DNA from: Jimgerdemannia flammicorona
Lineage: Eukaryota
DNA length: 46,961 bases
Direction: 5' to 3'
NCBI GenBank assembly: GCA_003990765.1
Contig: RBNJ01000049.1
Location: 1-46,961 of the forward strand
Below, piece after piece: positions 1-42,105 of this stretch (its first letter is position 1; each line of letters opens with the position of its first letter). The position numbers and the translations under genes are program-made. Under the pieces are notes generated by a model. The model was given only the letters and a program-made list of their open reading frames with translations, made no database searches and had not been told where the DNA came from.

Positions 1-468
1 AGAGCAAGCCATGTTGAGGAATACGCAGTGTGAAGAGACATTGGGAGGGGGGACCCAATCGCTAGGAACAAAATAGTGAGAGGACATCTCACCACGATCT
101 TGAAAGAAGATGGCAAGGTCAAGAGCACGATGAAAACATGTTAGACGAGCCGGATCAGTGAAGGAGAATTGTGAGGGAGTCGCAGGAAAAACAAAGCGAG
201 GTCCCAAGGATAAGGCAAAGACTTGAAGGGGAGAAAGGGGGCAGTCAGCCGAAGAAAAAGGAGGAGACAAAAGTGTTCCAAGAGAAGAATAAACCCGAAA
301 GTTCGGGACAAGCAACTGGGAAAGGCGAAGGGGGGACAGTATGAGGAACCACTCAGGGTACACCAGAAGCGACGACGGAATCCGAGAAGGGACGGGGACA
401 CCGGGGGAGAACCACGCCAGGGGGAAGTTTAAGAGCGGGAGGCCTTCCCCTTCCCTCTGACTTTTTTT
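1..468 (-). CDS. PLE reverse transcriptase ORF2, N-terminal part (no ATG near its start; predicted entry by -1 frameshift); runs off the window
   Basis: Stop-free frame from about 502 to 1, absent from the ORF track: FKKSQREGEGLPLLNFPLAWFSPGVPVPSRIPSSLLVYPEWFLILSPLRLSQLLVPNFRVYSSLGTLLSPPFSSADCPLSPLQVFALSLGPRFVFPATPSQFSFTDPARLTCFHRALDLAIFFQDRGEMSSHYFVPSDWVPPPNVSSHCVFLNMACS. Confidence 0.7.
421..468 (-). promoter_or_regulatory. Predicted -1 programmed ribosomal frameshift signal (A AAA AAA plus H-type pseudoknot)
   Basis: Slippery A7 at 468-462 is in phase with ORF1 (TCA AAA AAA GTC). After a 6-nt spacer, stem 1 is GGGA(455-452)/TCCC(440-437) and stem 2 is GGGGAAG(450-444)/CTTCCCC(427-421). 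The -1 frame is the RT frame. Confidence 0.65.
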
Positions 469-1633
469 GAAGGTGGCGAGCCCGACGAATGGGAGCACAC
501 CCCGTCAGAGTGCCAGATCTTGCGGCCACAGGCTTTTGTGCAGCCCTTACATTCAGGGGCATGGGTGGAGGAGGCAGAGGAGGAACCGGCAGAGGAAGCC
601 GAAGGCGAGCGAGCAGCCGAAGGGGCAGCAGCGCGAGGAACACCACCATGGGGACAGACGGACTTGGCCGGGTGCCAGTAGGCACGGTGGAGGCGACCGG
701 AGCAGACAGTGCAAGGCCAAGCCCCAACGGGGTGAGAACCAAGTTGGCGGCCATGCTTGGGGGCAGGGGGAACAGAGGAGGAGGCCTTGGCGGGGGAGGG
801 GGACCGGGAAGAGGCCGACGAAGCCTGGTTGGGCTTGGCGGGGGTCTTGGCGGGGCCTTGGCGGCGGCGGCGGCGAAGGAACGAACCTCAGCACGAGCAG
901 CAGCACGAGCTTCAGCGCGAATGGCTTCAGAGACTGAAACCTCAGGGGAGGCAGGGAGGGGAGCAGTGGCGGCGGCGCGAGCAGTAGCGGCGGCACATGA
1001 CGACTCCTGCTCGTGAAGACGAACAACAAAGGAAGTGCCGGCGAGGAGGAAACAACGCATAGCGTCGATGTCGGCGGCGACCGAAGGAACCTCGTGGATG
1101 GCAAAGCCACAGAAAGGGGCGGCATCCGAAAGGCGGGAGGAGGTGAAGGCCACGAAAGTGGCACAGGCACGGTGGAAGGCGGTGGAGGCGGCGGCGGCAG
1201 AAGCAGCGGCGGCATCAGCGGTGGCGAGTTTGGCGGCGGTGGTGGCGGCACAAACCTCTTCAGAGAGGGCTTGGCGGCGGGCCTCGGGGAGAACGGAGTA
1301 GCGGACAGCGGGCGGAGCGACGACGTCGACGTCACGGCAGAGACGAGCCTCCTTGGCGGAGAGGACAAGAACCGACCGGAACTGGGAGAGAAGCGGATGA
1401 CCAGAAGGACAAAGGTCCAGGGGGAGGGAAAGGATGGCAGACGAGATGTAGGTCTCGAAGGAGACAGTGGCGGGGGTAAAGGCAGGGGGAGGAGGAGGAG
1501 GAAGTACCTCATCCATGAGCTTGTCGACGAGGACGGAGGCCCCGAGAGCAGGCGGTACAGCAGAGGAGGAGAAAGGCCCAGCGGGAGCCAAGGGAGCAAA
1601 CCCAGAGCCAGTGTCAAAGCGAATGGAAGACAT
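429..1633 (-). CDS. PLE ORF1 (about 401 aa once one frameshift is corrected); Ala/Pro-rich, two Cys/His motifs, basic C-terminus
   Basis: ATG at 1633. The G4 run at 852-855 would be G5 by comparison with the neighbouring CTTGGCGGGGG repeat. Adding one base gives AKAPAKTPAKP...CTVCSGRLHRAYWHPAKSVCPH...CKGCTKACGRKIWHSDGVCSH...PSKKVRGKGKASRS*, with TAA at 431-429. Confidence 0.65.
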
Positions 1634-1897
1634 GTGGAAAAGCGTGTATAAGGGGGATGAATAAAGAACGTAACCAAAAGTGCATCAGCCGTTTATTGCC
1701 ACGTAAAAACGTGGTCCTTATATACAAAATATGACATCCCAAAAGGGAGGACGCGCCACAACTCGGGGCGAACCGAATTAGGAACCACATGACCGCCAGA
1801 GATAAGCGGAGATAACGGGAGAGCCAATCCCAGTTGCAGGATAAAAATCACAAACAAACATAAACAAAACAAATCCAAATCGAGATTAAAAAACATC
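1551..1897 (-). repeat. Left arm of inverted repeat (pseudo-LTR in element orientation: 5' UTR plus first ~27 codons of ORF1)
   Basis: Its reverse complement aligns with 2051-2397; the mismatches are mostly transitions. Confidence 0.95.
1692..1724 (-). promoter_or_regulatory. TATA box (TATATAA) followed by AATAAA within the pseudo-LTR
   Basis: Minus-strand TATATAA at 1724-1718 and AATAAA at 1697-1692, about 60-90 nt upstream of the ORF1 ATG; both are conserved in the inverted arm. Confidence 0.4.
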
Positions 1898-2050
1898 TGC
1901 AGACCCCGGAGGGGTGAGCGCGAGCGAGGGGTGAGGCCGAAACGGAGCGAGCCGCAGCGAGCCCGAGCGAAGCGAGGGGCCGAAGGCAGCGGAGGGGAGC
2001 AGAGTAAGGCCGAGACCCCGGAGCGAGCACGAGACCCCGGAGGGGGCAAG

Positions 2051-2397
2051 GATGTTTTTTAATCTCGATTTGGATTTGTTTTATTTATGTTTGTTTGTGA
2101 TTTTTATCCTGCAACTGGGATTGGCTCTCCCGTTATCTCCGCTTATCTCCAGCGGTCATGTGGTTCCTAATTCGGTTCGCCCCGAGTTGTGGCGCATCCT
2201 CCCTTTTGGGACGTCGTATTTTGTATATAAGGACTGCGTTTTTACATGGCAATAAACGGCTGATGCACTTTTGGTTACGTTCTTTGTTCGTCCCCCTTAT
2301 ACACGCTTTTCCACATGTCTTCCGTTTGCTTTGACACTGGCTCTGGGTTTGCTCCCTTGGCTCCCGCTGGGCCTTCCTCCTCCTCGGCTATACTACT
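2051..2397 (+). repeat. Right arm of inverted repeat (inverted pseudo-LTR ending in an ORF1-derived tail)
   Basis: Inverted copy of 1551-1897; encodes MSSVCFDTGSGFAPLAPAGPSSSSA and then joins AT-rich gypsy DNA. Confidence 0.95.
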
Positions 2398-3278
2398 TTG
2401 GGACTGGGTGCAATCAAGTGTCTATTCCCTATTTCCTTCTTCCAAATTTGGCTGTACCATCACAATAGTTTGGAAAGATCATCATTATCATTATCTTCTG
2501 CTGATAACTCTTTAATAGTATATATGTAGATATACTACTCTGGTTTCCAGATTAGCTTTTTCATTTGAATAGTAGAGATAATATTGTACTTGGATTTTGC
2601 TTTCTTCTTAATCTGTTCTAGCTATAGCTTAATATATCTTAGGGAGATTGTATTGGGTTTTTAGTTAATAAGTAGATTTTTTTGAGTGAGCCAGGATTTT
2701 CTAAGAATGAGATTATGTTCTGAAAGATATACAATATAGAAGATCTGCTTTGTAGTGTAGTCTCTAGTTATAGAAGTACACTCTTGCAGATTTTTGAGAG
2801 TTTCTGAGTTGGTTTATTTCTAAATATAATAATGTTTCTTTCTGAGTTTCTTTATATCTTGAGTCTAAACTTATCAGCAGTCTCCTTATCAAGATAGCAC
2901 TTACTTGCTCCACTATCAATAAGAACTTTAACAGAGTTTCCTTCAATTTTCTCTTATAAGTGAATATATTCAGGATTACTGTCTTGTCAAGTAACAATTA
3001 TTTCTAAAGAGACTTCTTCTTCCCAATCTTGTACATCTTTATCTTCATCAATAATATTCTTGATTTCTTCATTTTATTATTCTGGAATAGTTGACTTATA
3101 CTTCTAGATATATAATATATTCTTCTATATATTTGAAATAGTACATCTTGACTCTGTGAGAATATCATTCTGTTAGAATATATATACTGTTATTATTTCT
3201 GATCTTAGTCTTCAATACAAACAATCTTCTATATCTTGATCTTCTTCTTAGTCTTGTTAGAGTACTTTTTTATTGATC

Positions 3279-3285
3279 TGAAAGC

Positions 3286-3361
<76 letters not shown>

Positions 3362-4109
3362 CTGTCCACCACAAAAATTATGTGTATTATGCTGCCATCA
3401 CTACACACACCCTATTGTCGCCCATTTACGCCATCCATGTTACATGAAATCCTCCTCATACTCTGCCACATTCTCCACCTCCTTGTCCCGCCAATTGCTC
3501 TTCATGTTAACCTTACTGAAGAAATCATCCACCTGCTTCTTCGCCTTCCACTTCTGCTCGGCCTGTCTCTCCTCCTCCGCCCGCTTGCTGAACTCCGCCT
3601 GCCGGCTCTGGAGTTGGTCCTTCTTGTCCCGCGCCAATTTTTCCACTGCCAAGTCGGGCTCGCGCTCCTCCTTGGTCTTGTTGAGGCGGTTCACAATCGC
3701 GTTGACGCATATCTTGACGTGGATGCGTTTGACCTTATCCAGTTTGTGGAACGACACCTGCCCCGTTTCTATCCCTGCCATCTTCTTGAGGTTGTCCCAC
3801 GGCATGTAAACAATCGCTATGTTGTTTTTCTTGTTGCCATCGATACTGTTCGACTTGACTAATTGCGCGCAATCCACGAGCAGCTCTTTGGGGATCTCGG
3901 CCCAATCCTGGCCCGGCTGGAGGCGGAGGTAGACGTGGGCGCTTGAGAGCTTATCAATGTGAAACCAAACGTCCTCGGGAAACCCATACTTGATAAGATC
4001 CTCATTTTCGAACTTGTCCTTGCCCATGTAGATAGTGGCGGGCAGGTTGACAACATTGCTGGTGAAATACAGGACCATGGTGTGTATGCTGCGTGAAAGC
4101 TTTTTCTCT
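3279..4109 (-). pseudogene. CCDC25: Processed retrocopy of a CCDC25-family mRNA with poly(A) tail and 16-bp TSD
   Basis: TGAAAGCTTTTTCTCT occurs at 3279-3294 and 4094-4109. Between them are a poly(T) run to 3361, a 78-nt 3' UTR, an intronless ORF and a 15-nt 5' UTR. It interrupts a gypsy dUTPase. Confidence 0.95.
3440..4078 (-). CDS. CCDC25: CCDC25/Jlp2-family protein (NFACT-R/DUF814 domain plus coiled coil), 212 aa, open frame within the retrocopy
   Basis: Family motifs [17 protein letters not shown], [18 protein letters not shown], DCAQLVKxNSIx[12 protein letters not shown] and the C-terminal EEDFM. Confidence 0.93.
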
Positions 4110-5133
4110 CTATCAGAGAGTGATAGTTTATTTATTTCTTTGACTTTAAGATTATTATATATTACCTTGATAATAGCTTAAACAATTCATTTTTCATATA
4201 TAATTTTGACTGCTTTCTGTCCAGTATTATATAGCAGGACCTTGATTTTGTCTTTGAATTCTTAGTCTATAACTCCTCTAGCTATACAGAGTCTCTCTTT
4301 CTTAATCAGACTGCTTCTTTCTATAAGACAGATATAGATTTCTTTAGAGACTTCCATTCCAATACCTATGCTAATAGTTACTTATTTATTTAGTTTAATA
4401 GTTACTTTTATACTAAAGTAGAGGTCATAGTTAGCATCAGATTTATATACTTCATTTAGAATTTTTGCAGCAATATAAAATCTCTTAACTTTGATTTTTT
4501 CAGAGATTTCTTTAAGATTATCTCTTATTATAGTAATAGTGTATGAGGAGAATGGTCTTTTGTTTATATTGGTCTTCTTATCAGGGTATTTACAAGACAT
4601 ATGTTCTCTCTTTTTATAGTAGAAATATGCTTCTTTCTTTATGAGTTTCTCTATTTTCTTATTGGACAATTTCTTTAAATTTTCTTACAATTTCAGAAGT
4701 TATTCCAAGATTTATATTTCTTTTTAAATTAATATCACTTATCTCCTTTGTTATTGTTTCTGTCATTTCTTAGTTTTTGGGCTACTAAGATAGTATATAC
4801 TCTAGTAATGGCTTATTCTAAGTATTATTACTTATATAAGTAATTATATAGTTATTTATACTCTTAGATCTTTTCTGATAACTATCTAAGAATTGTAGTA
4901 TCAAAGAAGTATACTGCTATGATTCTATTTACAGTTTGTTATATCAGCTATATTCTACTCTTATAGTATTCAGAAGAGTTTCTAATCTTATTACAAATAC
5001 TTTCTTTTCTATCATTATAGAATTAGAGGTTTTTGAGTTTAGTTCTAGCTTTGGAGATGTGAATAGAGCTATAGAACTATTGAATGATCAGTTTCTTTGA
5101 TTTATGGTAGCTGAGTAGACTTTATAGTTAGAG

Positions 5134-8100
5134 TTTTTTTTTTTTTTTTTTTTTTTTTTATAGTTACTCAGACTTCTATTTATTACCACTCAATCTATAA
5201 ATAATAATACATATGTACCCACAACCTCTCAGCCAATGCCCCTCAGATCTCTCTCCCTACTCTCCATCTCTCTCTGCTAAAGGACAACCCAACTACCCAC
5301 TATCTGAACCCTCCCTCCACTCTTCTTGCAAATATATTTTACCAAATTCTGATGGCCCCCTCCACCCAATCCCTACCCTCTCCACCAACTATTCAAAATG
5401 TCAAGATTAACCATTCCCAATGTGCTACCCTAGCTCCAACTGCAACCTGCTGACCCCCCTCAAAGATATGAAGCCAATGACTAGTCAGCTCTATCCAAAT
5501 TACCAGGGCCCATCCTAAGGTCAATCATTCATCTCCAATCCTATCCACCAACCTATGCTGGAGGTCCCCACATCTCCCTCCTTCCCCCTCTACCAGAGAC
5601 TGCAATCCCAAACTACTAGTAATACTATGCCAAAACTCCCCCAAAACTTCACACTCCTCTAGCCAATGATTGGTACCACTCCTCCCTCCTGGTTAATATC
5701 CATACAATCCTCAAACTCAAATGTACCATCTACCACCAAGTGCCCTGACCAATAGTTCAGCATCACATTCTGCCTTAGGAATCTCCACCATACCACTCAG
5801 AACTTGAAGGGAAGCCACTGCATTGTCCTCTTACTCTAAAGCCAAACACCAATCCAGTCCTACTCCTTGCCAATCCCCACCCTTTGCCATGCTACAGACC
5901 ACACATCCCCCTGAGTCCCTGCATACATTCCATTCCATCACCAAGCTAAAAATCCTCCACCAATGTATCTCCCAGCATTAGCCAGTCCCATCTCCACATC
6001 CATGATCCCCAGTCCTCCTCTCCCTCATCACCCCTCCACTGAAGTCCAATTCTCCTTGCACTATCTACTACTTCTCACCAAAAACCTTTGTAATGTATCC
6101 TCCTGCTCTCATTCATGGCCACCATTGCTAGCAGGTTACCAGTCACTCAATAAGAGAAGTACTGGACTTCCCACACCCTCTGCATAAGTGGCACCCACTC
6201 CCAGCCTCTTAACTCACTTGTCCTCTTCGGCCACCATACTCTCAGATAATATAGGTGCTTGGTAAAGTCTACTAAGCCCAGCTCACCTCTGTCAACAGGC
6301 AAAGTCAGAACCTCCCAGCCTATCTGACTTCACCACCTGGCCCAAATCTATGATCTTGCCATCTTCAGAAGTCACCTGACCACTCATGCTGAGAATTCCA
6401 GATAATACCCCACATACTACAGCTTTAGCAGCCAATATACATTCAGCACTATCACCCATCCTGCCAAGGAGATATGCTGACCACCCCATCTCACAAGAAC
6501 ATTCCCCCATACTAGTAGCTACTGTTCCTACAATATATGAGACAGAAGGGATCCATATACTGAAAAGTAGATCCCCAAGTACCAGATCAGTTCTCCTGCT
6601 GGAACCACTGTTTCAATCATATCACTGCTAATTATTCTGCTACCTAGCATCAAAGTCTCACATTTGTACAAGTTGAGCTTAGCACCTGAGCCCCTCTCAT
6701 ACCATTCCACAGTCCTCCTTAATTCCTCCACATCCTCTAATAAACTCAGTCCAACCACTATATTATCTACAAAAGTCCCCCCCACCTTCCAGTTAATTCC
6801 CAAAATATCCAAACCCCCAATTCAATGCCAGATCCTGTCCAATAGGGGCTCTAAGGAAAGGGTGTATAGGATGAGTGACAAAGGATCTCCTTGCAGCACC
6901 CCATGACCTAGCAGAAAAGTAACACCCCTGTGCCCATTCACTACCAATACTGCTTGACTGTTTTTCAATAGACTGATTAATGACCTCCTGAACTCTGGGG
7001 GAACTTTTACCCATTTCAGCACTTCCTCCAGCCAGACTCTCACCCTGTTATATATCTTCTCCTGATCCAGAAACATTAACCAGCCATTAATCCCAGCTGC
7101 TCAAGCCACTTCAATCACTCCATAGATCCAGAGAGTTCCATCTCAGATCAACTGACCACCAACAAATCCCCTCTGCTCTACTCCTAGTATCTGCTGAGCA
7201 ATCTCCTGCAGTCTAGTCACCAAAATCTTTGTCACCAGCTTGCAGTCCATGTCAAGGAGCATGATCAGCTACCAGTTCTTCCTATCTTCTCTTCTCCCCT
7301 TATCCTTATAGAGCAAGGAGACCAACCATAGACACTGGCCCCCAATCCAAGTTCCAGATTAATGAACCTCATCACTCATTACCATCATCTCCTCCAATAC
7401 CACCTCCACTCCAGCTATCTTCTTCCAAAAATCCCAGAGAAGCCCATCCTCTCCTGGAGCTATCCCCTTACTTGTTGAAGCCAGGATCTTGCATACTTCC
7501 TCTCCCTGCACTGGGTCTCCCAGTATCCCCAGGTCCAGAGCTGGGTCCAGATACCAATTTTCTAACTGCTGTTTGATGTTTAGGGCATCCTCACCCCCTT
7601 CTTTGTCACTCTATAAATTCCCACAGTGAGTCCTCAGTAATCCCAAAATCTTAGGAGTCCCTGCCACCATCTCTCCATCTTCATCCAAAATACTATCCCA
7701 CTGTTGCCTGGTTCACTGAGCTTAGAGCAACTATGAAAGAAATCTAGTGGGCCTCTCTCCCTCCTCCAACCCCTGCCACTGCAACCTTGCCACCATCCCC
7801 TTCAGCTGAACCTCTTCCTCTATTCATAACACTTCCTTTAGCTCATCTACTTCTTTTTGTATCTGCAGAAATCGCCAATCAGCTGCTCCCCAATCCTCCG
7901 GCGACTCTGCCCACCTCCTCAGAAGTGCTGTCAATCTCTGTAAAGTTCATAGCACTTGTTGCCTCTGCTGAACACTCCTTCCTTCCTCCCTCCCTCCAGT
8001 ACCTCTGAGCACTTGTTTTCAGTCACTGCCAGTGATCCCCAATCACTAATCCCTGTTTCTGCCACCTACCAATCTTCACAATAACTTCCACCTCCCAGTC

Positions 8101-10887
8101 TATCTATAAGGAACCATCCTCCAACAAAGAAGAATTCAATTGCCAATGTCTAAGCCCATCCTCACTTCCCCCAAATCTCCCACTTTCTATCAGACCCCAG
8201 TGATCTGACTATGGGCACCAAACCACCTCCAGCATGTTCCAGACATTCACTCTTCAGTACTCTACCATCAATACCCAGTCAATCCTGAAGCCCATCCCTG
8301 TCACCCAGTGAGTATAAATTCGGTGATTCTCCCAAAACTGTCACCCTGAGTCAACCAAGGAGCTCAACCTCTCAATCTCCATCCAATCATCCAACCTGCC
8401 ACTTCTGCCTTCCTTTCCTCTCCTTCTATCAGTTCTGTCTACTCCATTATCACATACTATATTGAAATCACCCCTCAGGCAATCAATCCCTACCTCACCC
8501 ATAATACCAGCCTCTCTCAAGCCTCTGATCCAATCTACACATTCCCCACTCTCAGCTGGGCAATAACATGACTCAACAGTCAAAGGGTTCCACCCAGGCC
8601 TCCTCTATACTCCCTACACCAACCTACTCTCCCAATGTCCAATATCCCCAATATCCCCCACCCCCTTTCAAACCAGAATGCCCACCTGCCCAGTTCACAC
8701 AGCTGCTCTGCTCCATTCTCTAGTTTAGTTCTGTAAATACCTATCTACCTTATACCATATATCCTGTAGTAAGAAGAGATCTGCATCCAGCCCCTTCAAC
8801 CAGCCAAAGATATTCCTTCACCACACTATGTCCCTCAACCCTGTCTCATTCAAAGAAAAGATTCTAGTTGTACTGTTTATATTGAATAATGTTTGATATT
8901 GAGAACCCATCATAGTACTCCATGCTCATCTCATCACCAGCCAGCTCTAAGTGCCACTCTGCCTCCAACTCCTTCTCCACTACAGCCTGAGAATCCAGTG
9001 CTTCCAAGATTTCCTAACACTCCACTGCATCCACCACCTCTATTTCTGCCTGATAATCTGTGCATATCAATCTCCACTTCTCCAACCTCTTCCTTGATCC
9101 CCACAAGTATGCTGCCTGATCACTCACAATCTCTCAAAGGGTCTCCTCCCTCTGATCATCAACCTGAAACTCCTCCAACTCCAAGAGCACTGTTAGGATC
9201 TCATTCCTAATCTTTTTTGACACCTCCTCACCATGGAGAATTTCCTCCTGGTGTCTATTACTTAGAACCTGAAAGTCCTCTCTCTCCAGCTCCTCAGCCA
9301 CCACACTCTCCAGAGTCTTCCACAGTCACTTCTCTTCATCTACTGCCTTAGCAACACTCTGGGTAACCCTTTCAGCCACCACCACAGAGTCCACCAAAGT
9401 GCTCCTCCTCTCCAACTCATCCCACTCCTCTTCCAACATATCCAGGAGTTCCTCCTCACCCTTTGCCCCACCCAGGACATCATACTAAGGGTGTACTCTC
9501 TCTCCCATTTCAGCATCCTCCTCTATACCACCCCATCCCTCCTGTGCTCAATCCACCTTGTGCCATACCCTGACCCAGCCTACTCTCTCCAGGCCAGGCA
9601 ATCTCTCTCAATCCAGTACCATCTTCATCTACCCCACTACCTACCACACTCCCTCCCAATTACTCCAATAGCTCCTTCTGGATTCGCCTCCCCTGCACCT
9701 TCTTCCAGGCCACCTTGTCCATCCTAATCCTCTTTCCATCCACAATCTCCACCACTGTCTTGGCTTCATACTCCTTCCAAGACAATCTTCTCCTCTCTAC
9801 TGCTTCTGCCAGATCCTTGAGAGCCTCCAGCAAGTCCTCTTCTTCCTCTGGTGTCCTTTCACCTGCAAGACCTTGCATTCAACCAGGCCCCACTTAAGAG
9901 TTGCCAGCCAGTTCCTTGTCTTCTCTGTATTCTCTCTTCCAGCCAGCCTCACCCTGACATCAATGTCTCCTGTCCAGAGTTTAGTACCCTCCCAGACTCT
10001 GAACCCAATGTCCACAATATCCCCATACTCCTTGACCACCTCCACAATCAGCTCTCTGGTCCTCTCCCTTGACACCATAGAAAGATCCAATACCATCAAC
10101 TGCACCACTCAGGGGTCCCAGTATATATATCTGGCCATAGGAACTACCACTCTGCCCACTATCACCCCCTTCTCCATGGCTTCCAACATCAATGCCTCTT
10201 CCTCAAATCCAACCTTGACTCCTTCTTTCCCCTTCAAGAACTTCACTGAAGCCACCCCCTTCACCTTCTATATCACCAGCCCCAGAATCATTCTCACTAT
10301 CACTGCCAAGCCTTGGAAGCACAATGTGATAGTGAATTCTGATCTTGACTTTGTAAGTAATGGTGCTGACACCATTCCAGTCATGCCATCTGCCAGGTCC
10401 CTGGGCCTCATGCCCTCCTCCTATTCTGATTTGCCCACAACTGTCACACCTGGATTTTTTTCCAGATTCTCAGTCACAGCTCTATCAGCAGTCACATCTC
10501 CAGCCCCTGCTCCCCCCCTCTCCCTACTGCCTGGACCTCCCGCCCCTCTCTGTCCCCCAACTGAAGCCATCAACACCTTCCCCAGTCCCAACCAACTATA
10601 CAGACCAGATGCTATTCTCTCCATCTTGACCTTATTACCTCCTCCCTCCTTGTTGCCTCAATCTGCCCTTCCATCTATCACCAATACCACAATCAGTCAT
10701 AGAAGGCTCTGGCATCCCCAAACCATCTCCCCACCTCCTCCCTATATGCTGCCAGTTGATGGCACTGCTGCCTCCCTGGCTGACATGCTCACCAGTATAT
10801 TCATTGCTGCCCATGTTGCTAGTCTCCTTTTTGCAAAAAGTGTTGTCTGAGTCTTGTGTCACCTGAATGTTACCAGTGAAAGGTATG
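5134..10887 (-). mobile_element. L1/Tx1-like LINE copy A, near full length, decayed
   Basis: Poly(T) at 5134-5159 with the same 3' end as copy D (AATAAATA...GTAACTAT-An). RT motifs FLDQEK, GVLQGDPLS, FVDN, SGAKLN; endonuclease GDFN; ORF1 LWTGDIDVRVRL; 5' end shared with copies B and C. Confidence 0.92.
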
Positions 10888-10889
10888 TG

Positions 10890-11300
10890 TTAGTGATTGA
10901 TTCCAGGCTGACTACTATATTATCTACAAAGGTACCAACTTTCCACCCAATGACATATACTGAAAGCCCTCCTATCTGGTGCTGAATCCTATCCATCAAA
11001 GGCTCCAAGGAGAGTACATACAGAATGGGGGACAGTGGGTCCCTCCAAGGGACACCCCTACCCAGAGGGAAGGCCACCCCTCTATACCCATTATATATAA
11101 TTGCAGCTCTGCTTTCTTCTAGTAGACTGACCATTACCACTCAAAACTGTTGAGAGATACCAATCCAATCCAGAACCTTGCCATTCAGACTCTCTGAACA
11201 AGGTCATCCACCTTCTCCTGATTCAAGAAGACCAGGCACCCATCTAGTCCACAGGCTCATGCCCCTTCAATAATATTATATACCCAAGCCATAATACCCA
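10890..11300 (-). mobile_element. LINE RT fragment (most similar to the D/E subfamily)
   Basis: FPLGRGVPWRDPLSPILYVLSLEPL...FVDNIVV; nucleotide sequence close to 40210-40600. Confidence 0.85.
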
Positions 11301-11304
11301 TCTA

Positions 11305-12535
11305 TCCTATATAAGTACAGTGAACCCACCCCCTACCCTATCCCCCTATGGGGGCCCCTCCCCCCTACCCCTTCTTGACGAAACACCACTCTATTGAATA
11401 CAATTCCCACCCTCCCACCACTCTGATCACATATCTTTGTCACCAAACCTCATTGTCACCCCCCTGAAGGACCCCAACCTATCCACCATCCAGTCATCAG
11501 ATCTCCCAGCAGCTCCTCCCACCTTAAGACCTTCTCCTGCATACTCACCCACTCCCCCTCCTCAAATACAAATAACCAATGTCCTGCCAATCCCACCCAA
11601 ATTGCTATCACCCACCCAACAGTGAGCCAACTATCCCCCACCCCCCCCACTAGCCAAGACCTCAAGTCCTCTCTGCTATCTGGTCCTCTCCTTTGACACC
11701 ATAGGGAGATCCAACACTGTCAACTGCACCACTCGGGGGTCCCAGCGCATGCACCTGGCCATAGGGATGACAACCCCACCAACTGTCACCCCCTTCTCCA
11801 AGGCCACCAGTAAAGTGTCTTCCTTCTCGAACCCCACCTCAACCCCTTCCTTCCCCTTCAAAAACTTCACCAATGCTGCTCCCTTTGCCTCCTGCACCAC
11901 CAGCCCCAAAATCATCCTTGCCATCACTGCCAAGCCCCAGAAACACATCATGACTGCGAATTCCGACCTCGACTTCTTGAGTAACAGGGCCGACACCATG
12001 CCCATAACCCCATCTGCCAGGTCCCCAGGCCTCGTGCCCACTCCCCATCCTGAATTATCAACTGCCATCACATCTGGATTTTTTGCCAGATCCTCAGTCA
12101 CAGCCCCATCACTAGTCACATCTCCAGCCCCTACTCTGGCTCCTCCCCCACCCTCAGCAACTCCCCTGGGTACACCTCCCAGACCCCCAGCAGCAGCTAT
12201 CGACACCTTCCCCAGGCCCAGCCAACCATCCAGACCTGAGGCCATCTTCCCCATTCTGACCTTGTTAGCAAAGGTCAACCTCTCTCCTCCTCTCTGCCTC
12301 AGACCACCCCTCCATCCACCACCAGGACCTCAGCTAACCATCGAGGCCCCCAGTATCCCCAAACCATCTCTCCTCCTTCCCACCTGCTGCCAGCCAAAGG
12401 TGCTGTCTCCCCCCTGGCCAGCACACTCACCAGTTCGATCGTTGCCATCCATGTCAATAGTCATTGGACACCAAAATGTAGTAAAAAGTATTGCCTGAGT
12501 CTTGTGTCACCCGAATGGTACTGGTGAAAGATGAT
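11305..12535 (-). mobile_element. LINE copy B, internally deleted (5' end and first third of ORF1 fused to the 3' terminus)
   Basis: 12535-11676 aligns with the 5' ends of copies A and C; 11675-11305 aligns with the ORF2 C-terminus (WVIAIWVGLAGHWLFVFEEG). Confidence 0.8.
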
Positions 12536-12539
12536 GCCA

Positions 12540-14950
12540 AGACCCTGGCCTCTTTCAACCCATGAATCCAATCCACCCACTCCCCTCTCACAGCTGGGCA
12601 GTAACATGACTCAACCATCAACAGGCTCTATCCAGACCTCTTCCACACTCCCTACACCAACCGAGACCCTCAAGGTCCAATGTCCCCAATGTCCCTCATT
12701 CCTTTTTGAATGAGGATACCTACTCTCCCCATCCATACCACAGCCCCCCCCCATTCCTTAGTTCAATCCTGTAAGTCCACATCTACCTCATAACAGACAT
12801 TCTGCAGCAAGAAGAGATCTGCATCCAGTTCCCTTAGCCATCTGAATATGTACTTCCTCCTAGCTACCCCCCATAACCCATTTATGTTCAAAGAGAATAT
12901 TCTAGTTATACTGTTTATTTTGAAGAAATGTTTGAATTCAAGATCCCAGCCTAGTATTCCATACTCATCTTATCCCAACTCAGATCCAAGCACTGCTCTG
13001 CTTCCAATTCACCCTCTGCAACAGTCTGAGCATCCAATGCCTCCAATATTTCCTGACATTCCACCCCATCCACCACCTTCATCTCTGTCTGGTAGTCCAT
13101 GCAGACTGCTCTCCACTTCTCCAAACCCTTTCTTGAGTTCCACAGATATGCTGCCCAGTCATTCGCAATCCCCCTAAGTTCCTCTCCCACAGATCATCAA
13201 CTTGGTATTCAACTGATTCCAAGAGAACTGCCAGGATCTCATTCCTTACCTTCCTCAGTACCCCCTCTCTCCCATAGGATTTCCACCCAATGCCTCTCTT
13301 CTATAACCTGGAAGTCCTCTCCCCACAGCTCCTCTGCAGCCACCCCTTCCAGCATCTTCCACAGCCACTTCTCCTCATCCACCACCTCTGCCATACTCTG
13401 GGTAATCTGATCACCCCCCACCTCTGGGTCCACCAGAGCACTCCTCCTCACTGACTCATCCCACTCCTCATCCAGCATGTCCAGCAACTCCTCCTCCCCC
13501 CCAGCTCCACCCAGGACACTGTACTGAGGGTGTACTCCTTCACTCATTTCTGCATCTGCCTCCACACTGCCTTCCCTCTCCTCTCCCAATCCAACCTGCA
13601 CCCCACCTTGGGCCATTTCGCTTCCCCCTGCCCAGGCACTCTCTTGCAATCCCACTTGCCCATCCCCCATATTGCTGCCTGCCCCACCACTGCCCAGCCT
13701 TGCCAGCAGCTCCTTCTGGATTTTCCTCCCCTGCATCTTCTCCCAGGACACCCAATCCATCCTGACCCTCTTCTCATCCATGACTTCCACCACTATCCTG
13801 GTCTCATACTCCTTCCAAGCCAATCTCCTCCTCTCAACCACTCCTTCCAGATCTTCCAGAGCCTCAAGCAAGTCTTCCTTCTCCTCTAGAGTCCCCTTCA
13901 CCCTCGTGACCTTGCACTCCACTGGTCCCCACTTTAGAGTCGCCAGCCAGTCCCTCAAATTCCCCATGTTCTCCTTTCCAGCCAGCCTCACCCTGACATC
14001 AATGTCACCAGTCCAGAGCTTGGTACCCTCCCAGACCTTGAACCTGACATCTACAATCTCCCTATACTCCTTGACTGCCTCCACAATCAACTCCCTAGCC
14101 CTCTCCTTTGACACCATAGAAAGATCCAACACTGTCACTGTATCACTCAGGGGTCCCAGTATATGCATCTGGCCATAGGGACCACAACTCTGCCCACTGT
14201 CACCCCCTTCTCCATGGCAGCCAGCAATGTCTCTTCTTCCTTGAACCCTACCTCAATTCCTTCTTTTCCCTTCAAAAACTTTACCAATGCCACTCCTTTC
14301 GCCTCCTGCATCACCAGCCCCAAGAGCATCCTCATAGTTATCACCAAGCCTCTGAAATACATTGTGACAGTAAATTCCAACCTCGATTTCTTGAGCAATG
14401 GTGCCAACACTATACCTGTCACCCTATCTGCTAGGTTCCTGGGTCTTATACCCACCCCTTATCCTGAATTAGCAGCTGCTGTCACATCTGGATTTTTATC
14501 CAGATCCCCAGTTACAGTCCCATCAACAGTCATATCTCCAGCCCCTACTCCTCCTCCTCCCCTACCACCAGATACTCTCCTGGGCACTCCTCCTAGTCCC
14601 CCAGCAGCAGCCATCGATGCTTTCCCCAGGCCCAGCCAACCATCAAGGCCAAAGGCCATTTTCCCCATCTTGACCTTGTCAGCAAAGGTCAACCTCTCCC
14701 CTCCTCACTGCCTCAGGCTGCCCCTCTCTCCTCCACCAGAGCCTCAGCCAGCCATTGATGCCCCTGGCATCTCCAAACCATCTCCCCTCCTCCCTACCTG
14801 CTGTCAGCCAAAGGCATCACCTCTCCTCTGGCCAGTACACCCACCAGTTCAATTGTTGCCATCTATATTGATAGTCATCTATCACCAAAAATATTGTAGA
14901 AAGTATTGTTGGAGTCTTGTGTCACCTGAATGTTACTGGTGAAAGGTGTG
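12540..14950 (-). mobile_element. LINE copy C, 5' part (ORF1 plus start of endonuclease), 3'-truncated
   Basis: 5' end CACACCTTTCACCAGTAACATTCAGGTGACAC at 14950; ORF1 segments at 14692-13239; endonuclease start IFSLNING...ADLFLLQ near 12900-12790. Confidence 0.88.
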
Positions 14951-15064
14951 ACATCTTTCTATCTTTAAGAATGATATTTTATTATATTTCATTTATTCAC
15001 TAGTTCTTCTTCTATATTTGTATTTTCCTACCATCAGAATTTATCTATATTTTTTATTTTCACT

Positions 15065-16692: not shown

Positions 16693-16738
<46 letters not shown>
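16693..16738. repeat. Poly(T) tract at the left border of the CpG-rich island
   Basis: 46 consecutive T. Confidence 0.9.
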
Positions 16739-16740
<2 letters not shown>

Positions 16741-18566
16741 ATGTTTCCGTAACCATTGGTTATGTGATAACTATTGTTCGCCCACCACAAAGTTACGGCT
16801 TCACATCCTGGGCATTGTCTTTCGGTGGTTCTACGGCTCGTCAAAAGATTCGTAGAATTTTCCAAAATCCGATATCCAACAACCGTGCCCCGATTTTTAT
16901 AATCTGCATACGACATAGGATATGTTAATTTATCGTCAAAAGTTCCCTCGATGTAATTCAGGAGAAATTATCGTGCATCCTTTCAGATACGCTCAAAATT
17001 TTATGTGAAGGTCTACTGATACAGTATTCTCGTTGCGCCGTGTCCGCGACAGTTTTGGCTGGACACAGTTTGACCCAGCCACGACAGGCTGCTCATTTGA
17101 TGGCAAGGTTTCAATGACGGGTTAGGCAAGTCATTAGACGGCAATGTGATTGGTGGGCCTTATTAACAACCTGCCGAATATATCAGCTAGCGACGCACAG
17201 TTGCGCCCCAGCGTCACGTTCGTTGGCCAGTTGGGTTGGTCAAATGACGAGGGGCCCGTCATTCATTCGCCCTAGAGCTTTTAGACGACCCCAAATAGGC
17301 GTACGTAACGCAATTGTTTTTTATTATTATTTTTTTATTGCTATCTTTACTACTACACTCCACTCACGTCTTCTACGCTTCTTCTACGCTTCTCCAACGC
17401 GCTCTCCAACGCGCTCTTCATACCACCGCCTCCCAATTACCCAACGACACTACTCCGCAAAACGGGCTTTTGGCCTGTGTTCGATCCTGATCTATCCGAA
17501 TTTACCGTGTACCGCCTGACTGGACAAGCTCACGCGCCTCTCTTTATGGACGTACAATGGCAGACCCATCCCACACTTCGACGGCTGAAAGCAGCGAACG
17601 AAGACACGTCCCACGCTACTTCGGCACCGTATCTGTCGCGCATGACGTTGGTCCAGCAGGGCAGCCACGGCGGTGGGGACCGGTTGTTCCTTTGCCACCA
17701 GTCCTTAGTTTCCAGAGTTCGTTGTCATGGGTGGTGCGTCACGAACGTGCGCTTAGCGGCCAGAGCCATTCGTGGCCTTTTGATTTTTACCTAGTATTTC
17801 TTTTCTGGTGACATGTCGAACACGCCACTCTCACACCCTCGACTACGCAACTCAAGCCAACAAAGTATCCGCCCATTGGTCACCGCCCAGTTTGTCGCGT
17901 GAAAGCCTTTGCTTCGTAAGGCGCTGCCATCTAACCCCCAAACCGCTTTCACCCCACCTGTAATGAGCATACCACGCCAAAATTCAAACGCCAATTGCCA
18001 ATTCGGTGGCACTCCAGTAACCTTCCTCGTTTGCTGCTCATGTGAGTTTAGCCTCTACTTTTCATCATCTCCCTTTTTGCTCCATGCGCCCTGGCGAGCA
18101 GCAGACTCGCGCACAATGTATACATGTCTAAGCAGACGATTCACATTCAACTCGCCGGACATTCAGTATCAGCAGAAGACGACATCACCATCGGTAGCTA
18201 AGGTACGTACTGGATAACGGTGTGAAGGTGTGGAGGTCCCGACTGGTATGCCGTAGACTGAAAACATCGGTGATGGAGGCAGGAATATATGTTTCCTTGG
18301 GAATTAAGCTGAAAACGTGGCATGATCGACAATTGAGCAGTGCCTTAATTGGCTGTAATATTAATTTCCGTACTTCATATCCATAAACAGCCGCCACATA
18401 AACAGGCGACGCTGATGGTTTCCGTGTATCTCGGGAAAAATTGGCGGCAAGTAAGGAGGCGGTGGGTTGTTTATGGCGTGGTATCTTTTACACGGGTGAA
18501 AAAAAAACAAAAAAAAAAAATACAAAAAAAAAAAAAACTAAAAAAAAAAAAAAAAAAAAAAAAACC

Positions 18567-18613
<47 letters not shown>

Positions 18614-20955: not shown

Positions 20956-21038
20956 CAGCCTTTCTCAGCTACCATTCATGTTATACATACTTTTACAACA
21001 CACTTTCAAGTTGTTTATTAGAGAAAGGTACTAAGGCA

Positions 21039-23080
21039 ATGACAAACAGCAAGCAATCTGGAGTGCATACTGGGCAGGGTGGCCCTAGCACGTTCAACTG
21101 GCAGTAGGTGGGGAGAGGTCCTGGCCTGGGGGGAGGCATGAGGGGGCTGTTGGCAGGAGAACAAGAAGGGAGAGGAGGCAGTAGTAGAGGACAGGGGTCT
21201 GGGAGGGCAAGCTTTGCAGAGATGGTGAAGGAGAGGCAGCAGACATCTGGGTTGAAGGGTTGGCTGAGAAAAGGCAAGGAGATGGAGAAGACAGCAGTTC
21301 ACAGAGGAGTAGTCCTTGGTGGTGAGGGCAGTGAAGCTGGGGGAGTAGTGGCTAGGGAGAGTATGATGGCTAATGGTGATGGGACTGCCAATCTGGAAAA
21401 AAATCCAGATATGACTGCTGATGGCATGGCTGAGCAGCTGAGGCTTGGAAGGCAAGGAGATTTGGCAGATAGTGTGATGGGTCTGGCAGTGGCTCCATTA
21501 CTCAAGAAATCGATCTTGGCATTTGTAGTGACGTTGTGCTTCTAGGGCCTGGCAGTGATGGCAAAAATGGTGCTGGGGCTTATTGCTAAGCAGGTGGCTG
21601 GAGCAGTATCTGTAAAGTTCCTGAAGGGTTTGGAGGGAGTGGAGGTGGGCTTTGAGGAGGCTGAGCCTCTGGAGGAAGCACTGAAAGTTGGATTGATAGT
21701 TGGGGAGGTGTGTGTTCTAATGGCATGCTGCCTGAAATAGGACTCCAAGGTGGTCCAACTGCTGGTGAAAGGAGTGCCTATGGTAATGGCAGTAGAGATG
21801 AGAAGGAGAGTTGAGGAGGTCATAGTGGAGTATAGAGAGGTGGTGAATATGTATCAGATTCAGAGTCTGGGAAGGGATCTTGCTCAGAACTGGAGATGTG
21901 GATGTGAGGATTCAGCTGGCAGGAAAAGAAGCTATCAGAAAGGCAAGGGACTGGCCTTCAGAGATAGTCTGGGGGGTGATCTTGTACAAGGTGACAAGGG
22001 TGAAGAGGAGTGAGGAGGAGGAAGAGGACTTGCTGGAGGCACTGGAAGAGCTGAGTGGAGCAGTAGAGTAGCAGGTGAAGGCTTGGAAGGTTTTTGTGGA
22101 GTCAACATACTTGGAGGTGGTGGATGGAAAGTGGATTCGAGTAGACAAGGGGTAATGGGAAAAAGCTCAGAGATATAAGCATCAGAAAGAGCTACTGGCT
22201 AAGATAGAAAGTCAACCATAGAAGGAGATAGGTAGAATGATAGAAACAGGGGGTGCCAAGGCAAGTATCTGGGCTGGCAAAGATGGTGGGAGTACAGAGA
22301 AGAGAACAGAAGAGGACAGGAAAGCAGCTAGCAATGACTCATATGCTGATGGTATATTGGAGGTCTGAGAAGAGGACTGGGAGGGATCGCCTACCTCTAC
22401 TTCTCTTATCAGGCAAGGTCCAGCTTCCCAGAGCAGGATGAGAGAGAATATACTAATAAAGGGGGCCCAGTGAGTGCAATTTGGAGTTCCTGAGGTAGCA
22501 AATGGGGGACAGGTGGTGGCAGTTAAAGAGGAGGAACTGGTGGATATCCCAGAGGTGTGGGATGAGGCTGCAAGTACTGGGGCTGACACTACAATGTTGG
22601 ATGGCAGGAGACTAGTGACTCCTGGGGGAAAAGAGGTAGGAAACCTACTTTGGATATGCAGAATGATGAATAACCTAGCAGCTGAAGAGTTGGGGGAGGT
22701 GGACTTGAGAGTAATGAGCAATGAGCATTGGGCATAGATCTTGCAGGGGAATGGAGTGGAGTTGGCATTGAAGGCAGAGATTCTTGCAGTGTATCTAGAG
22801 GAGGAAGAGTATGAGGTGGATAAGGAGCAGAAGACAGAGCTAGCAGGGGTTGCTGGTGAGAGGGCCAAATACTGTTGGGCCAAGCAATATAGATTGTAGC
22901 TCTGGTAGGAGGTCTGCCTGAAGTACTGAGAGAAGTTTGAGGAGAAGACAGATGGAGAGATAAATGAGCTATTGACTGGATTGGAGGCTCAGAGGGCTGA
23001 AGAGGAAGCAGTGACTGTGGAACATAATCTGGACATAGCACAAGAAGAGATAAACATAGAGCAGTAGGAATGGACTGAAT
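21039..23080 (+). pseudogene. LINE D ORF1 (nucleic-acid-binding protein), multiple stops and frameshift
   Basis: ATG at 21039; RTGDVDVRIQL motif and acidic tracts homologous to ORF1 of copies A, B, C and E. Confidence 0.75.
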
Positions 23081-26000
23081 AAATACACTATACTTTATAA
23101 TAAATAGTACAACTAATATTTTTTCTTTGAATATGAATAGGTTACAGGATGCTTATCAATGAAGGAACATTTTTACTTAGCTGAAGGGATTGGAGGCCAA
23201 TCTCTTCCTCTTGTAGGATGTCAGGTATGAAGATGATTTAGATAGACTGGAATGGACAAAGAAATGGAGAGATGAGGCAGTTTGGAAGGGAAAGGTTGGG
23301 ATTCTGGTACAGAAAGGTAGAGGGGAGATAAGAGATATGCAGAGCTGGGGGGATAGATTGGTCTGGGGTGAGTGGATATGTACAGGATGAGAGCTGGTCA
23401 CAGTGGGCTCCTGTTACTGCCCTGCTGTACAGAGTGAGCATGTGGATTGGGTGAAGGGCCTTCAGGAGAGTGAAATCCTTGTAGAGGCAGGGGTGGATAT
23501 GCTTGGTGGAGACTACAATATGGTCTGAGATATACTGTTAGATAGAACAGATGGAGGATGGGGAGCTGAGGGTCAGAGTGGAGGACTGGCAGTATAGGAG
23601 GAAGTGAAAAGGCTGAGTGCTCTGGTGGATGTGGGTAGAGAGTGCTGGGGGAATAGGAGGGTATACATGCATTGAGTAGGGGGCTTGGAGATGAGAATTG
23701 ATTGGATTCTGACAGCTAGCTGCTGGGGCTTAGATGTTTGGAAGTTACTGGAGGTGGAATGGTGTCCTTGATTGGATTATTAGAGGCTTTTAGAACAGGA
23801 GCATTTTGGGGGGAGTAGGGATGGGCCTGGACATTGGTACTTCAATTCTTCCTTATTAGATGATAAGATCTGGTGGGATGAGTGGGCTGCAGACATTCAA
23901 CTGAGGGTAGAGTGTTAGAGACAGGAAGGTGCTCCAGTTGGTGTTTGGTGGATATGGATAAAAGAGATGGCCAGGACCTACTGAAGTGAGGCTGGCAAGG
24001 AGGCTGGGAAACAGAGGAGGTGATGGGTGAGATGAGCTTCTAGTAGACTGTCTAGACTCTTGGAGAATTGAGCAAGACTGGCAATATTGGAGGGAGAGGA
24101 GAATTGGAGATCAATGAGGGTAAAAAGGGAGGTTGGTGAACTACAACAGGTATTGCAGGAGGAGGAAGAGGCAAAGGTGCAGAGCTTGGCAGTGTGGCTC
24201 TGTTGGCAGGGTTTGGAAGAAGGGGAGAGACCCTCAAAGTATCTCACAAGAGCCCTTCAGGCAAGAAGGGTACAGCAAAGGTGGAAGGGGGTGCTTGACT
24301 CTGATGGTATACTGGTGCATGATATACAAGACATTCTTAGATCTTTAAAGGAGCATTGGAGTAGATTGTGGAGTAAGGAGGAGGGTGGGGCAGATGTGGA
24401 TACTATTGACCAAGTATTAGAGAATTGGCACCCCTCACGAGTAGATGGGTTGGGAGACTTGGTGTTGCCAGTACAGGAAGAGGAGATCCACCAGGTTCTT
24501 GCTGTGACAATGCTGGATATGGTACTTGAGAAGGACAGTTTACCCTGGGACTTTTGGAAGAAGATGGTGGGAATCTCAGGAGTACTGAGTGAGATGATAG
24601 TATTGTGTGATTTGATTCTATAGATGGAGAGATGGGTGGGGGAACAGGATCTGGGATTGGTGACATTGCTTTACAAGAACAAAGGAAGGCAAGAGGACTA
24701 GAAGAACTGGAGGCCAATTATGCTACTGAATATGGACAGAAAGTTGGTTACTAAGATGGTAGTCACAAGGCTACAAAAGGTGACCCAGCAAGTCTTGGGT
24801 ATTGAGCAGAGGGGCTTTGTAGGAGGCCAGCTCATTAGAGATGGTACAGCCTGGATACATAGAGTTATTGAAGAGGCACAAGCTAGTGGATTGAATGGAT
24901 GTCTGGTCTTTTTGGACAAGGAGAAGGCTTATGACCAGGTGAGGCAAGGCTGGCTGGCAAAAGTATTAGATAGGACTGGGGTTCCATACCAGTTCAGGTC
25001 AGCAATGGTCAGCCTACTGGAAGGGAGTAGGGCTGTACTCATATGTAATAAACATAGAGGGGTAGAATTTCCCCTGGGTAGGGGGGTGCCCCAGGGGGAC
25101 CCACTGTCCCCCATTCTGTATACTCTTTCTCTGGAACCCTTAATGGATAGAATCAGGTGGAAGATAGTGGGGCTCTCCATCTTTGGCATTGGGTAGAAAG
25201 TAAGGGCCTTTGCAGATAATATAGTGGTTGGACTGGGATCCATTACTGATGTGGAGGAGCTTAAGGAGATAGTAGAGTGGTATGAGGAGAACTCTGGGGC
25301 TAAACTTAATTGGCATAAGTGTGAAACAATGGTGTTAGGCAATGGTCTGATGGGAGGGGAGGTTATTGGAACAATTGTCCCTACTGATGAGACAGTGCAG
25401 TACTTGGGTATCTATCTGTCAGTATACAGGTCAGTTCTATCCAAGCTTTGGTGGAAGCAGTGGGTTAGAATCTGAGGAGAGGCCCTGCAGAGTTGGGAGG
25501 GTTGCCAATTGTCTCTGGCAGGGCATGTCTCGATTTTGAATATCTACTAGCTGCCAAAGTTATAGTATCTGGCTTATTATCTAGACTTCCCAGCCTGGGT
25601 GGTGAAGAGATTGATGAGGCTGGCCAAGGGATGGATCTGGGCTAGAAGAAGGAGTCAGATCAGCTGGGAGGTCTTGTCCTTACCAGTGGTGAGTAGTGGA
25701 CTTGGGCTGGTTGACTTTCCAAAGAGGCTACACTGCTTGAGAGCATGGTGGCTGAAGAGAGCCATGAAGTTGAGAGGGGGAGGTTGGGTTCTCCTATTAC
25801 AGAAGGTCTGGGAGATGAGGTCCTTGCCAAGAGGCTTGACTGGAGATCTCCTATCTTTGGTTGGCCTTCAGAATACTGAAAAATTGCAATATAAAGGCTT
25901 CTGGTGGGGGGTAGCAGAGAGGATGCACTGTATTGGAATTCATTGGCAAGAAAATGAAGAGGAGGTGGCTTGGGACCTGGTGATGTAGAGATGGGACTGG

Positions 26001-40897: not shown

Positions 40898-42105
40898 TGT
40901 AATGTGCCTGGCTCAATAGAGGCAAATTACAAGGTTGGGGGTTAATGTAGTTTGGCTTAAGCCCTCAGTTACTTTGTCAAAAGTAACAAAATGTTCTAGG
41001 ATTCCTGAGGTCCTTAGTGTTTAGTAGTATAATTGTCAAAGCTGGATATCTGTGAGCAATTTATATATCAATTTCCTAATTGGGATGGTTCTTGGAGTGT
41101 AGTGGCAATTTGTAAATGGGTTTTCTTCTTGGGTCAACTGGGAATTAGTAGAATTTCATATATAGCATGAGTGGTTTCCTTCTTGAGTATTAGGCGATTT
41201 CTATATAGTACAGTGATCTCCTTATACATAATGGTCTGGCAATTTAGCAGTTTTCCTCATGCAATTTCTGCATGATGATCTCTGTATAGCATAATGATCT
41301 CCAAAGGTATGCAATTTCTGGTAGATAACTTGATTTAGGTGCAGCTTCTCTAAAATAGTAGCTTACTGAGAATTATACTAGTGGCAGATTCTTCTGCACT
41401 GGGCTTACTAAGAATAATAAATAACTTGGATAGCACAGATTCTTCCTGAATCAGCGGGCTCTTCTGGGAATATTGGATAACTCAAAAATAGTAGATGACA
41501 TGGATTCTTCTGAATTGGCAGACTTCAACTGAGAAATATAACTGACAGCTTTGGGAAAGGGTCTCTTAGCAAAGTTGCATCAAAGACTGGCTTTGTTTGT
41601 ACAAATAGATTCATTGTGAAGTTGTGTCAGAAACTGGCTTGAGCAAGGTAGCTTTCTCTTAGGTAGTGGAAAAGGCAGAAATCTTCAGGCTTATCTAGTA
41701 AGTGAACTAATAGTACAGCTTATTCCTTAAGTAGTGGGTCTTTAGTCTTAGTCTGGCAAGTATACCAATAATTCCAAAGGTGTCAAAGTTCTTCACTTGA
41801 ACTTGGTGGCAAAATCTTCAAGCTTTATATCGAAAAGTGGACCAGAGTGAGGAAATAAGCTTACAATCTCCTAGCAGTAGCTATAGAGTTTCTCTCGAAG
41901 TGTGGTAGGCAGACTTGTCTTTTGCTTCAATTTCAGACTGAGGTTTATTCACTCTTATCTCTGGGGTAATTTATAAATTGTGGTTGCTATTTGATTATTA
42001 TGTGGCTAACTATAGATTTGCTACTAATAGCAAGTGTGCAGATCTGGCATGGGTGTATAGGTCTTGTATAGGTGTATAGGTCTTATACAGATATACAGGT
42101 CTTAC

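Follow-up and report, generated by a model that had tools for sequence, protein, structure and literature searches.

The window analysed here is a stretch of 46,961 nucleotides (nt), contig RBNJ01000049.1 of the Jimgerdemannia flammicorona assembly GCA_003990765.1. Close to its first position it holds, on the minus strand, an open reading frame (ORF), here called ORF1, which is probably the first ORF of a repeated retroelement and which is spread over two reading frames. The N-terminal part (frame A, 856..1633) starts with an ATG at 1633-1631, comprises about 260 amino acids (aa) rich in Ala, Ser and Pro, and shows no recognised domain. The C-terminal part (frame B, 432..851) consists of Pro/Ala/Lys repeats, two Cys/His motifs with a linker between them and a basic tail, and ends with a stop codon at 431-429. 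In minus-strand translation, motif 1 (648..713), CTVCSGRLHRAYWHPAKSVCPH, reads C-x2-C-x4-H-x4-H-x5-C-x-H and is directly preceded by ...AWP in the frame 887-432, while motif 2 (489..551), CKGCTKACGRKIWHSDGVCSH, reads C-x2-C-x3-C-x5-H-x4-C-x-H. Both are separated by a Ser/Ala/Pro-rich linker of 32 aa (552..647), and motif 2 is followed by the Lys/Arg tail SSGSPPSKKVRGKGKASRS (432..488). We hold it to be rather probable that the motif pair represents translated zinc-knuckle-like modules, which make up the nucleic-acid-binding, nucleocapsid-like C-terminus of ORF1 in a multi-copy retroelement; the class of this retroelement is not readable from the window.

The motif pair is real and non-random. 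An earlier note, made from the sequence alone, had placed the motifs at 713-648 and 551-489, and minus-strand translation confirmed these coordinates. The Trp before His, the Ser/Ala linker and the basic tail it described are all present in the translation as well. All seven Cys residues of the 152-aa motif frame lie inside the two motifs. Aligned with a single gap, the motifs agree in 8 of 22 columns (C, C, R, W, H, V, C and H), with Trp standing immediately before the shared His in both. Four of these eight residues are encoded by different synonymous codons in motif 1 and motif 2, which suggests that the duplication is old and was maintained at the protein level. Not one of 20,000 dinucleotide-preserving shuffles of 432-887, read in any of three frames, and not one of 20,000 residue shuffles contained the strict pattern CxxC-x9-H-x4/5-C twice. 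A loose pattern was found twice in 0.035% of the dinucleotide and 0.025% of the residue shuffles, and it matches six times in the six frames of the 46,961-base window, two of these matches being motifs 1 and 2. With regard to the retroviral knuckle, the claim of a different spacing is only half right, as motif 1 holds C-x2-C-x4-H-x4-H, which is the classical spacing with His as last residue.

To be expressed, the motifs require that frames A and B join near 852, because frame B (432-887) has no Met and contains nine stops farther upstream. Frame A is open over 356-1684, with its first Met at 1633. The minus strand is composed of 42% C and 10% A and stop codons are consequently rare there. We therefore give other types of evidence for coding. 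Position-specific composition, trained on the upstream ORF (857-1633, frame A), was best for frame A in 13 of 13 sliding windows from 1630 to 910 and best for frame B in all six from 850 to 550, so that the switch from A to B falls between the windows starting at 910 and 850. Over 432-851 the score was +0.4 bits for frame B, -61.5 for frame A and -89.3 for frame C. The element is repeated, as related contigs with a likeness of 80-99+% were obtained from two public runs, 136 from a soil metagenome (X1) and 42 from 'organism A' (X2), and a second 5' end lies in the window itself. Both runs contain a small share of the stretch, no RNA run was listed as containing it, and contig depth was not taken as copy number. 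The following counts refer to 40 of the 320 differences between the window and these relatives, 29 of the 40 lying within 432-1522. Of the 21 such differences above 852, 14 affect third positions of frame A and 13 leave the amino acid unchanged; of the eight below 852, five affect third positions of frame B, all five being synonymous, compared with two of eight that are synonymous in frame A. Combined, 19 of 29 are at third positions (binomial P = 0.0004) and 18 of 29 are synonymous. Six indels in the relatives were also considered. Three are multiples of three: -3 at 619, within the linker and in one X1 contig, +12 behind 833, and -3 at 1504. Two more, a loss (-1) and a gain (+1) separated by 5 nt, belong to the same X2 contig. 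The last one, a +1 at 851, coincides exactly with the frame break of the window. The plus-strand frames that share the wobble positions contain stops, two of them within 432-851; the window has a further stop at 1398, and a relative has one at 1385. Thus composition, substitutions and indels support that the motif frame is coding, and the frame which the earlier note had restored by one extra base is, judged by composition, third-position excess and indel lengths, under coding constraint.

Two ligand sets fit the motifs. One is common to both, C-x2-C-x9-H-x4/5-C, and equals the set of the earlier note minus the last His. The other follows the classical register, with C-x2-C-x4-H-x4-H in motif 1 and C-x2-C-x3-C-x5-H in motif 2, where the third ligand would be displaced by one residue. 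The codon of the first Cys of motif 1 is changed from TGC to TGT, thus synonymously, in five X1 contigs and one X2 contig, and the residue after it is changed from Thr to Ala in relatives. Position 490 is covered by a single contig each of X1 and X2, and in both the last His of motif 2 is replaced by Arg (CAT to CGT). Since both covering contigs carry Arg, the trailing His of C-x-H is not a fixed ligand, and its proposed role as a conserved one had to be dropped. The assumed conservation of the Cys and His residues is accordingly borne out at the first Cys of motif 1 and contradicted at the last His of motif 2.

A zinc-knuckle function of the pair is likely from its position and make-up, and its C-terminal place in the first ORF together with the basic tail fits a nucleocapsid-like module. 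One zinc ion may be bound per motif, either by Cys1, Cys4, the Trp-preceded His14 and Cys19/20, that is as CCHC with a nine-residue loop, or by the first four Cys/His in 2-4-4 register, giving CCHH in motif 1 and CCCH in motif 2. With their loops stabilised by zinc, the knuckles might then bring the conserved Arg and Trp into contact with unpaired bases in the RNA of the element, while the flexible Ser/Ala linker would allow both knuckles to bind a single RNA. The Lys/Arg tail could contribute extra charge for RNA affinity and possibly nuclear import; the earlier proposal of a nuclear localisation signal is possible, such a signal being indistinguishable here from plain RNA binding. One might speculate that the ORF1 protein coats or chaperones the element's own RNA prior to reverse transcription. 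A bolder reading, to which we give little credence, is that of a distinct Cys/His finger class with six potential ligands per motif, twelve in total, and three metal sites, in which the trailing V-C-x-H pairs would bridge the two knuckles. Such a class would mark an orphan retroelement lineage, possibly a fungal Penelope-like element (PLE) or an otherwise unclassified element with a gag-like ORF1.

The two parts of ORF1 meet at a C4 run (852..855, minus strand; GGGG on the plus strand), where the composition switches from A to B and a relative carries the additional base. This relative, record 4 of the X1 contigs, is 236 nt long with a depth of 11.4 and spans 730-952; behind 851 it carries a single additional G, and it also has an in-frame 12-nt insertion that adds a Thr-Pro-Ala-Lys unit. 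The only other contig over 851, from X2 and of depth 2, lacks the extra base. The base postulated at 852-855 was thus recovered in one of the two relatives covering the site, the dissenting one being of a depth level that is prone to error. A programmed frame change, by -1 ribosomal frameshifting or transcriptional slippage with C4 as the functional state, would agree with the four-base run common to the window and that X2 contig and with the coordinates, by which the step from A to B is a -1 shift. Retroelements do use -1 shifts, as is also stated in the legend of Fig. 1 of PMC8557442. However, AAG GCC CCG is not a slippery heptamer of the type X XXY YYZ, and the extra base is simply present in a relative, along with an in-frame insertion, while the contig with the four-base run is the error-prone one. 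To our knowledge, there is moreover no precedent for a frameshift in the middle of a gag-like protein. We thus judge a programmed shift to be improbable. As the site is no such heptamer, we read the window copy as defective or miscalled: most likely, one base was lost or a homopolymer was miscalled at 852-855. With its N-terminal and knuckle parts out of frame at C4, the window copy is probably unable to make the full-length ORF1 protein.

Besides the X2 contig without the extra base, several results weigh against zinc-knuckle-like modules in a translated ORF1. Conservation is visible for only two of the twelve Cys/His residues, one kept and one changed to Arg, because 40 of 320 differences could be considered. 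Within 432-851 the plus-strand co-wobble frame is equally synonymous (five of eight of these differences). Long open frames are to be expected on a C-rich strand, and spurious ones of up to 392 aa exist antisense to the long interspersed nuclear elements (LINEs) of the window. Pfam returned no family at E<=10 for any of four cuts of the motif region (152, 99, 30 and 29 aa), in line with the earlier note, whose author did not recognise the finger type. Among PDB sequences only a chance match to histone H2A appeared (E 1.1), and no genuine protein relative of the 152-aa part was found among 1.84 billion representative proteins searched with phmmer. A single-sequence AlphaFold2 model of the C-terminal part is too poor to use, with a predicted local distance difference test (pLDDT) value of 47.7.

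Other searches gave similar results. The N-terminal stretch (356-1684) matched no Pfam family and the N-terminal part has no relative among 8,000 scored candidates of 143-455 aa; the model of 856-1636 is all-helical and, at pLDDT 40.1, unusable. The single phmmer match to the C-terminal part, P0001, is a tandem-repeat protein with 10 weak stretches and was rejected. For DNA relatives, none of the pattern matches in metagenome_contigs (595 and 444), viral_contigs (373) or genome_contigs (360) was confirmed, and a plasmid collection, irrelevant to the element, had no match. In the ESM Atlas the best score for the C-terminal part was 0.78, below lead level, as was that of a look-alike cluster with zf-CCHC (0.77), and the N-terminal part had no usable match. 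In the literature searched, Cx2Cx9Hx4/5C was met only as the truncated string CX2CX9H in unrelated papers, and Cx2Cx4Hx4H and Cx2Cx3Cx5H not at all. A tblastx comparison of 1-2050 with the remaining window delivered only proline-rich low-complexity matches.

If all of this were artefact, the minus-strand frames would be open by chance, owing to the high C content of the strand, and the motifs would be functionless. Three minus-strand and several plus-strand frames are indeed open over hundreds of codons here, the long frames antisense to the LINEs match no family, and no library searched contained a homologue. On the other hand, shuffles never reproduced the motif pair, both the excess at third positions and the change of frame agree in position with an indel seen in a relative, and indels in relatives preserve the frame. 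We therefore regard chance frames as very improbable and retain the interpretation as zinc-knuckle-like modules of a translated ORF1.

The surroundings of ORF1 show how the element is arranged. Upstream of the start codon lies a 5' terminal region (1634..1897, minus strand) with a sharp 5' end at 1897, as defined by a two-copy alignment. A second, inverted copy of this 5' end (2051..2393, plus strand) comprises the 5' region and the first ~26 codons of ORF1 and ends at 2393. The stretches 2051-2393 (+) and 1897-1555 (-) share 95% identity and begin at the same base. Between these head-to-head 5' ends lies a spacer of 153 nt (1898..2050), G-rich on the plus strand and delimited on either side by a 14-nt direct repeat, AGACCCCGGAGGGG (1901-1914 and 2032-2045). 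A preferred target, a palindromic rearrangement or a part of the element structure are possible explanations of this arrangement. In both copies TATATAAGG (1724-1716 in the first) is followed 19 nt later by AATAAA (1697-1692), together spanning 1692-1724 (-) and 2224-2256 (+); these sequences look promoter-like and poly(A)-signal-like, as in a long terminal repeat (LTR).

Downstream of the ORF1 stop, 1..428 on the minus strand may hold the start of ORF2. Frame C, -1 relative to frame B, has no stop between 504 and the edge of the window, a run of 168 codons that contains a Met at about position 95 and gave no Pfam match. It is preferred by composition only between ~310 and 1; at 430-250 the preference is weakly for frame A. 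Directly after the stop, at 353-431 (-), frame A is best by composition and the differences at 359 and 419 are synonymous in it, a stretch with few data. An A7 run at 462-468 (-), the only one in 1-2050, shares the phase of frame B and precedes the ORF1 stop by about 30 nt. This A AAA AAA heptamer and the open -1 frame look like a gag-pol slippery site. The predicted hairpin or pseudoknot behind it (minimum free energy -29.6 kcal/mol, z = -0.13) is not evidence, with 85 of 200 shuffles folding as well. As a side observation, transitions make up about 90% of the places at which X1 contigs differ from the window over 1-2400 (237 of 262 places; G>A 88, C>T 69), a bias that would agree with deamination of methylated C or with a process on repeats resembling repeat-induced point mutation.

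The remaining window is rich in other elements. Several decayed L1-like LINE copies, 65-81% alike, occupy 5000-15000, 21000-26000 and 36400-41000, with their reverse transcriptase (RT) frames on the G-rich strand and the spurious open frames mentioned above on the C-rich antisense strand; one part is tandemly repeated (8510-10887 is similar to 12548-14950). Remains of gypsy-like LTR retroelements at 31412-33694 (+) and 44413-46169 (-) encode dUTPase, RT and the integrase zinc-binding domain. In AT-rich DNA between repeats, at 3440-4177 (-), lies a single-exon gene that appears to be intact and encodes an NFACT-R_1 domain (E 1.3e-32). Long poly(A)/poly(T) tracts are found at 3294-3361, 5134-5159, 16693-16738 and 18499-18611, and A7 matches number 268 in the window, with ~10 expected; some of these tracts may be LINE tails.

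To which class does the element belong? Its own ORF2 and RT lie beyond window position 1, and the RTs present in the window are L1-like among the non-LTR ones and gypsy-like otherwise. The features of the 5' region, the open -1 frame and the A7 run lean to an LTR-like gag-pol layout. If the element is of LTR type, ORF1 would be Gag with a C-terminal nucleocapsid and pol would follow in the -1 frame, which we regard as a tentative possibility. Knuckles at the C-terminus of Gag are the rule in LTR elements, and both copies begin at exactly the same base. About 220 nt after this sharp end, the order TATATAAGG, AATAAA 19 nt later, ...GCA, 4 nt and TGG resembles U3-R-U5 with a primer-binding site, and the A AAA AAA run in phase with frame B and the 168 open codons of the -1 frame suit a gag-pol transition. 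Conversely, the window contains no second LTR copy and no tRNA gene to compare with the candidate primer-binding site, the first 168 codons of the -1 frame show neither a Pfam match nor a protease motif, composition at 430-250 prefers frame A over the -1 frame, and the hairpin after A7 is no better than shuffles. A non-LTR element, that is a LINE with a Jockey-like ORF1 protein (ORF1p) bearing C-terminal knuckles, is a less plausible and in our view doubtful option. The window is LINE-dense, an RT at 24702-25193 matches L1 ORF2p (E 7e-18) and a weak match to an apurinic/apyrimidinic endonuclease lies at 12766-12969. However, LINEs are usually 5'-truncated, and both copies here have complete, identical 5' ends. 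Neither DNA nor protein similarity connects the element to the LINEs of the window beyond low-complexity proline runs, and strand composition is opposite, as ORF1 resides on the C-rich strand and the LINE RT frames on the G-rich one. Pfam found no RNA recognition motif (RRM) or other domain upstream of the knuckles, and the next in-frame Met comes ~335 nt after the ORF1 stop. In favour of a LINE, Jockey-like ORF1ps end in one or more CCHC knuckles, according to PMC3905857.

The earlier note had assigned the motifs to ORF1 of a PLE, a label that found no support in the window. An inverted partial copy adjoins the element, and PLEs often have inverted neighbours; some PLEs also possess an ORF1, and PMC8557442 describes one Chlamys type with an upstream zf-CCHC ORF, so that a knuckle-bearing ORF1 in a PLE would not be a first. 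The same paper names an inverted 5'-truncated copy as the typical neighbour, whereas the neighbour here is an inverted 5' end truncated on its 3' side at 2393. It further reports hammerhead ribozymes for all PLE clades except Naiad and most Chlamys, and a single ORF for canonical endonuclease-positive (EN+) PLEs. Rfam gave no hammerhead match at gathering score in the whole window, nor was a hammerhead among the five weak matches obtained for 1-3300 at E<=10; the element's 3' end lies outside the window. Neither a GIY-YIG domain nor a PLE-type RT was seen in the 194 ORF translations scanned, although the element's 3' part is missing from the window, and no tandem repeat of the element's 3' part (pLTR) occurs upstream in the window. 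PLE membership is conceivable, since the element's RT lies beyond position 1, but we consider it unlikely.

Taken together, the motif pair is most likely an ordinary module type, namely an RNA-binding zinc-knuckle pair of unusual spacing in an unannotated repeat. Zinc knuckles of Gag and ORF1 proteins select and chaperone retroelement RNA, and a variant missed by every profile shows how retroelements escape annotation: the protein collections searched do not contain ORF1, and copies of it are seen in the form of short contigs only. If zinc is indeed bound with a nine-residue loop or by CCHH/CCCH ligands, a wider sequence definition for finding nucleocapsid-like domains would follow. Determining the class through ORF2 would tell whether gag-like first ORFs occur where they are rare among retroelements. 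The practical gain is an improved repeat annotation of this genome, with no bearing on a long-standing open question.

Compared with known systems, the motif pair resembles the retroviral zf-CCHC (PF00098) in being composed of short tandem Cys/His modules that start with C-x2-C, in its place at the C-terminus of a repeated element's first ORF, in the adjoining basic residues and in the aromatic residue near His; motif 1 even stands in the exact 2-4-4 register, C-x2-C-x4-H-x4-. In contrast to zf-CCHC, the last ligand of motif 1 would be His instead of Cys, the spacing in motif 2 is C-x2-C-x3-C-x5-H, a conserved V-C-x-H is present in addition in each motif, the consensus Gly residues are absent, and no hidden Markov model matched even at E<=10. 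The ligand order of motif 1, C..C-x4-H-..-H-x5-C, also recalls the CCHHC fingers of the MYT1/NZF type (Pfam zf-C2HC). In these fingers the first His is not known to be a ligand, which would parallel a CCHC reading of motif 1. However, the spacing is different both between the two Cys and between the two His, the first His is missing from motif 2, Pfam gave no match, and that family comprises cellular DNA-binding proteins and not transposon proteins. The PLE Chlamys-2_cBra shares a separate upstream ORF with a gag-like knuckle, but PMC8557442 gives it a canonical zf-CCHC and a 3' hammerhead, neither of which was found here. In Jockey-like LINEs the first ORF likewise ends in Gag-like knuckles, thought to bind the element RNA; PMC3905857 places RRMs before these CCHC knuckles, while none were detected here and the spacing differs. 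Jockey-like LINE ORF1ps (PMC3905857) and retroviral Gag serve as the functional models for the motif pair.

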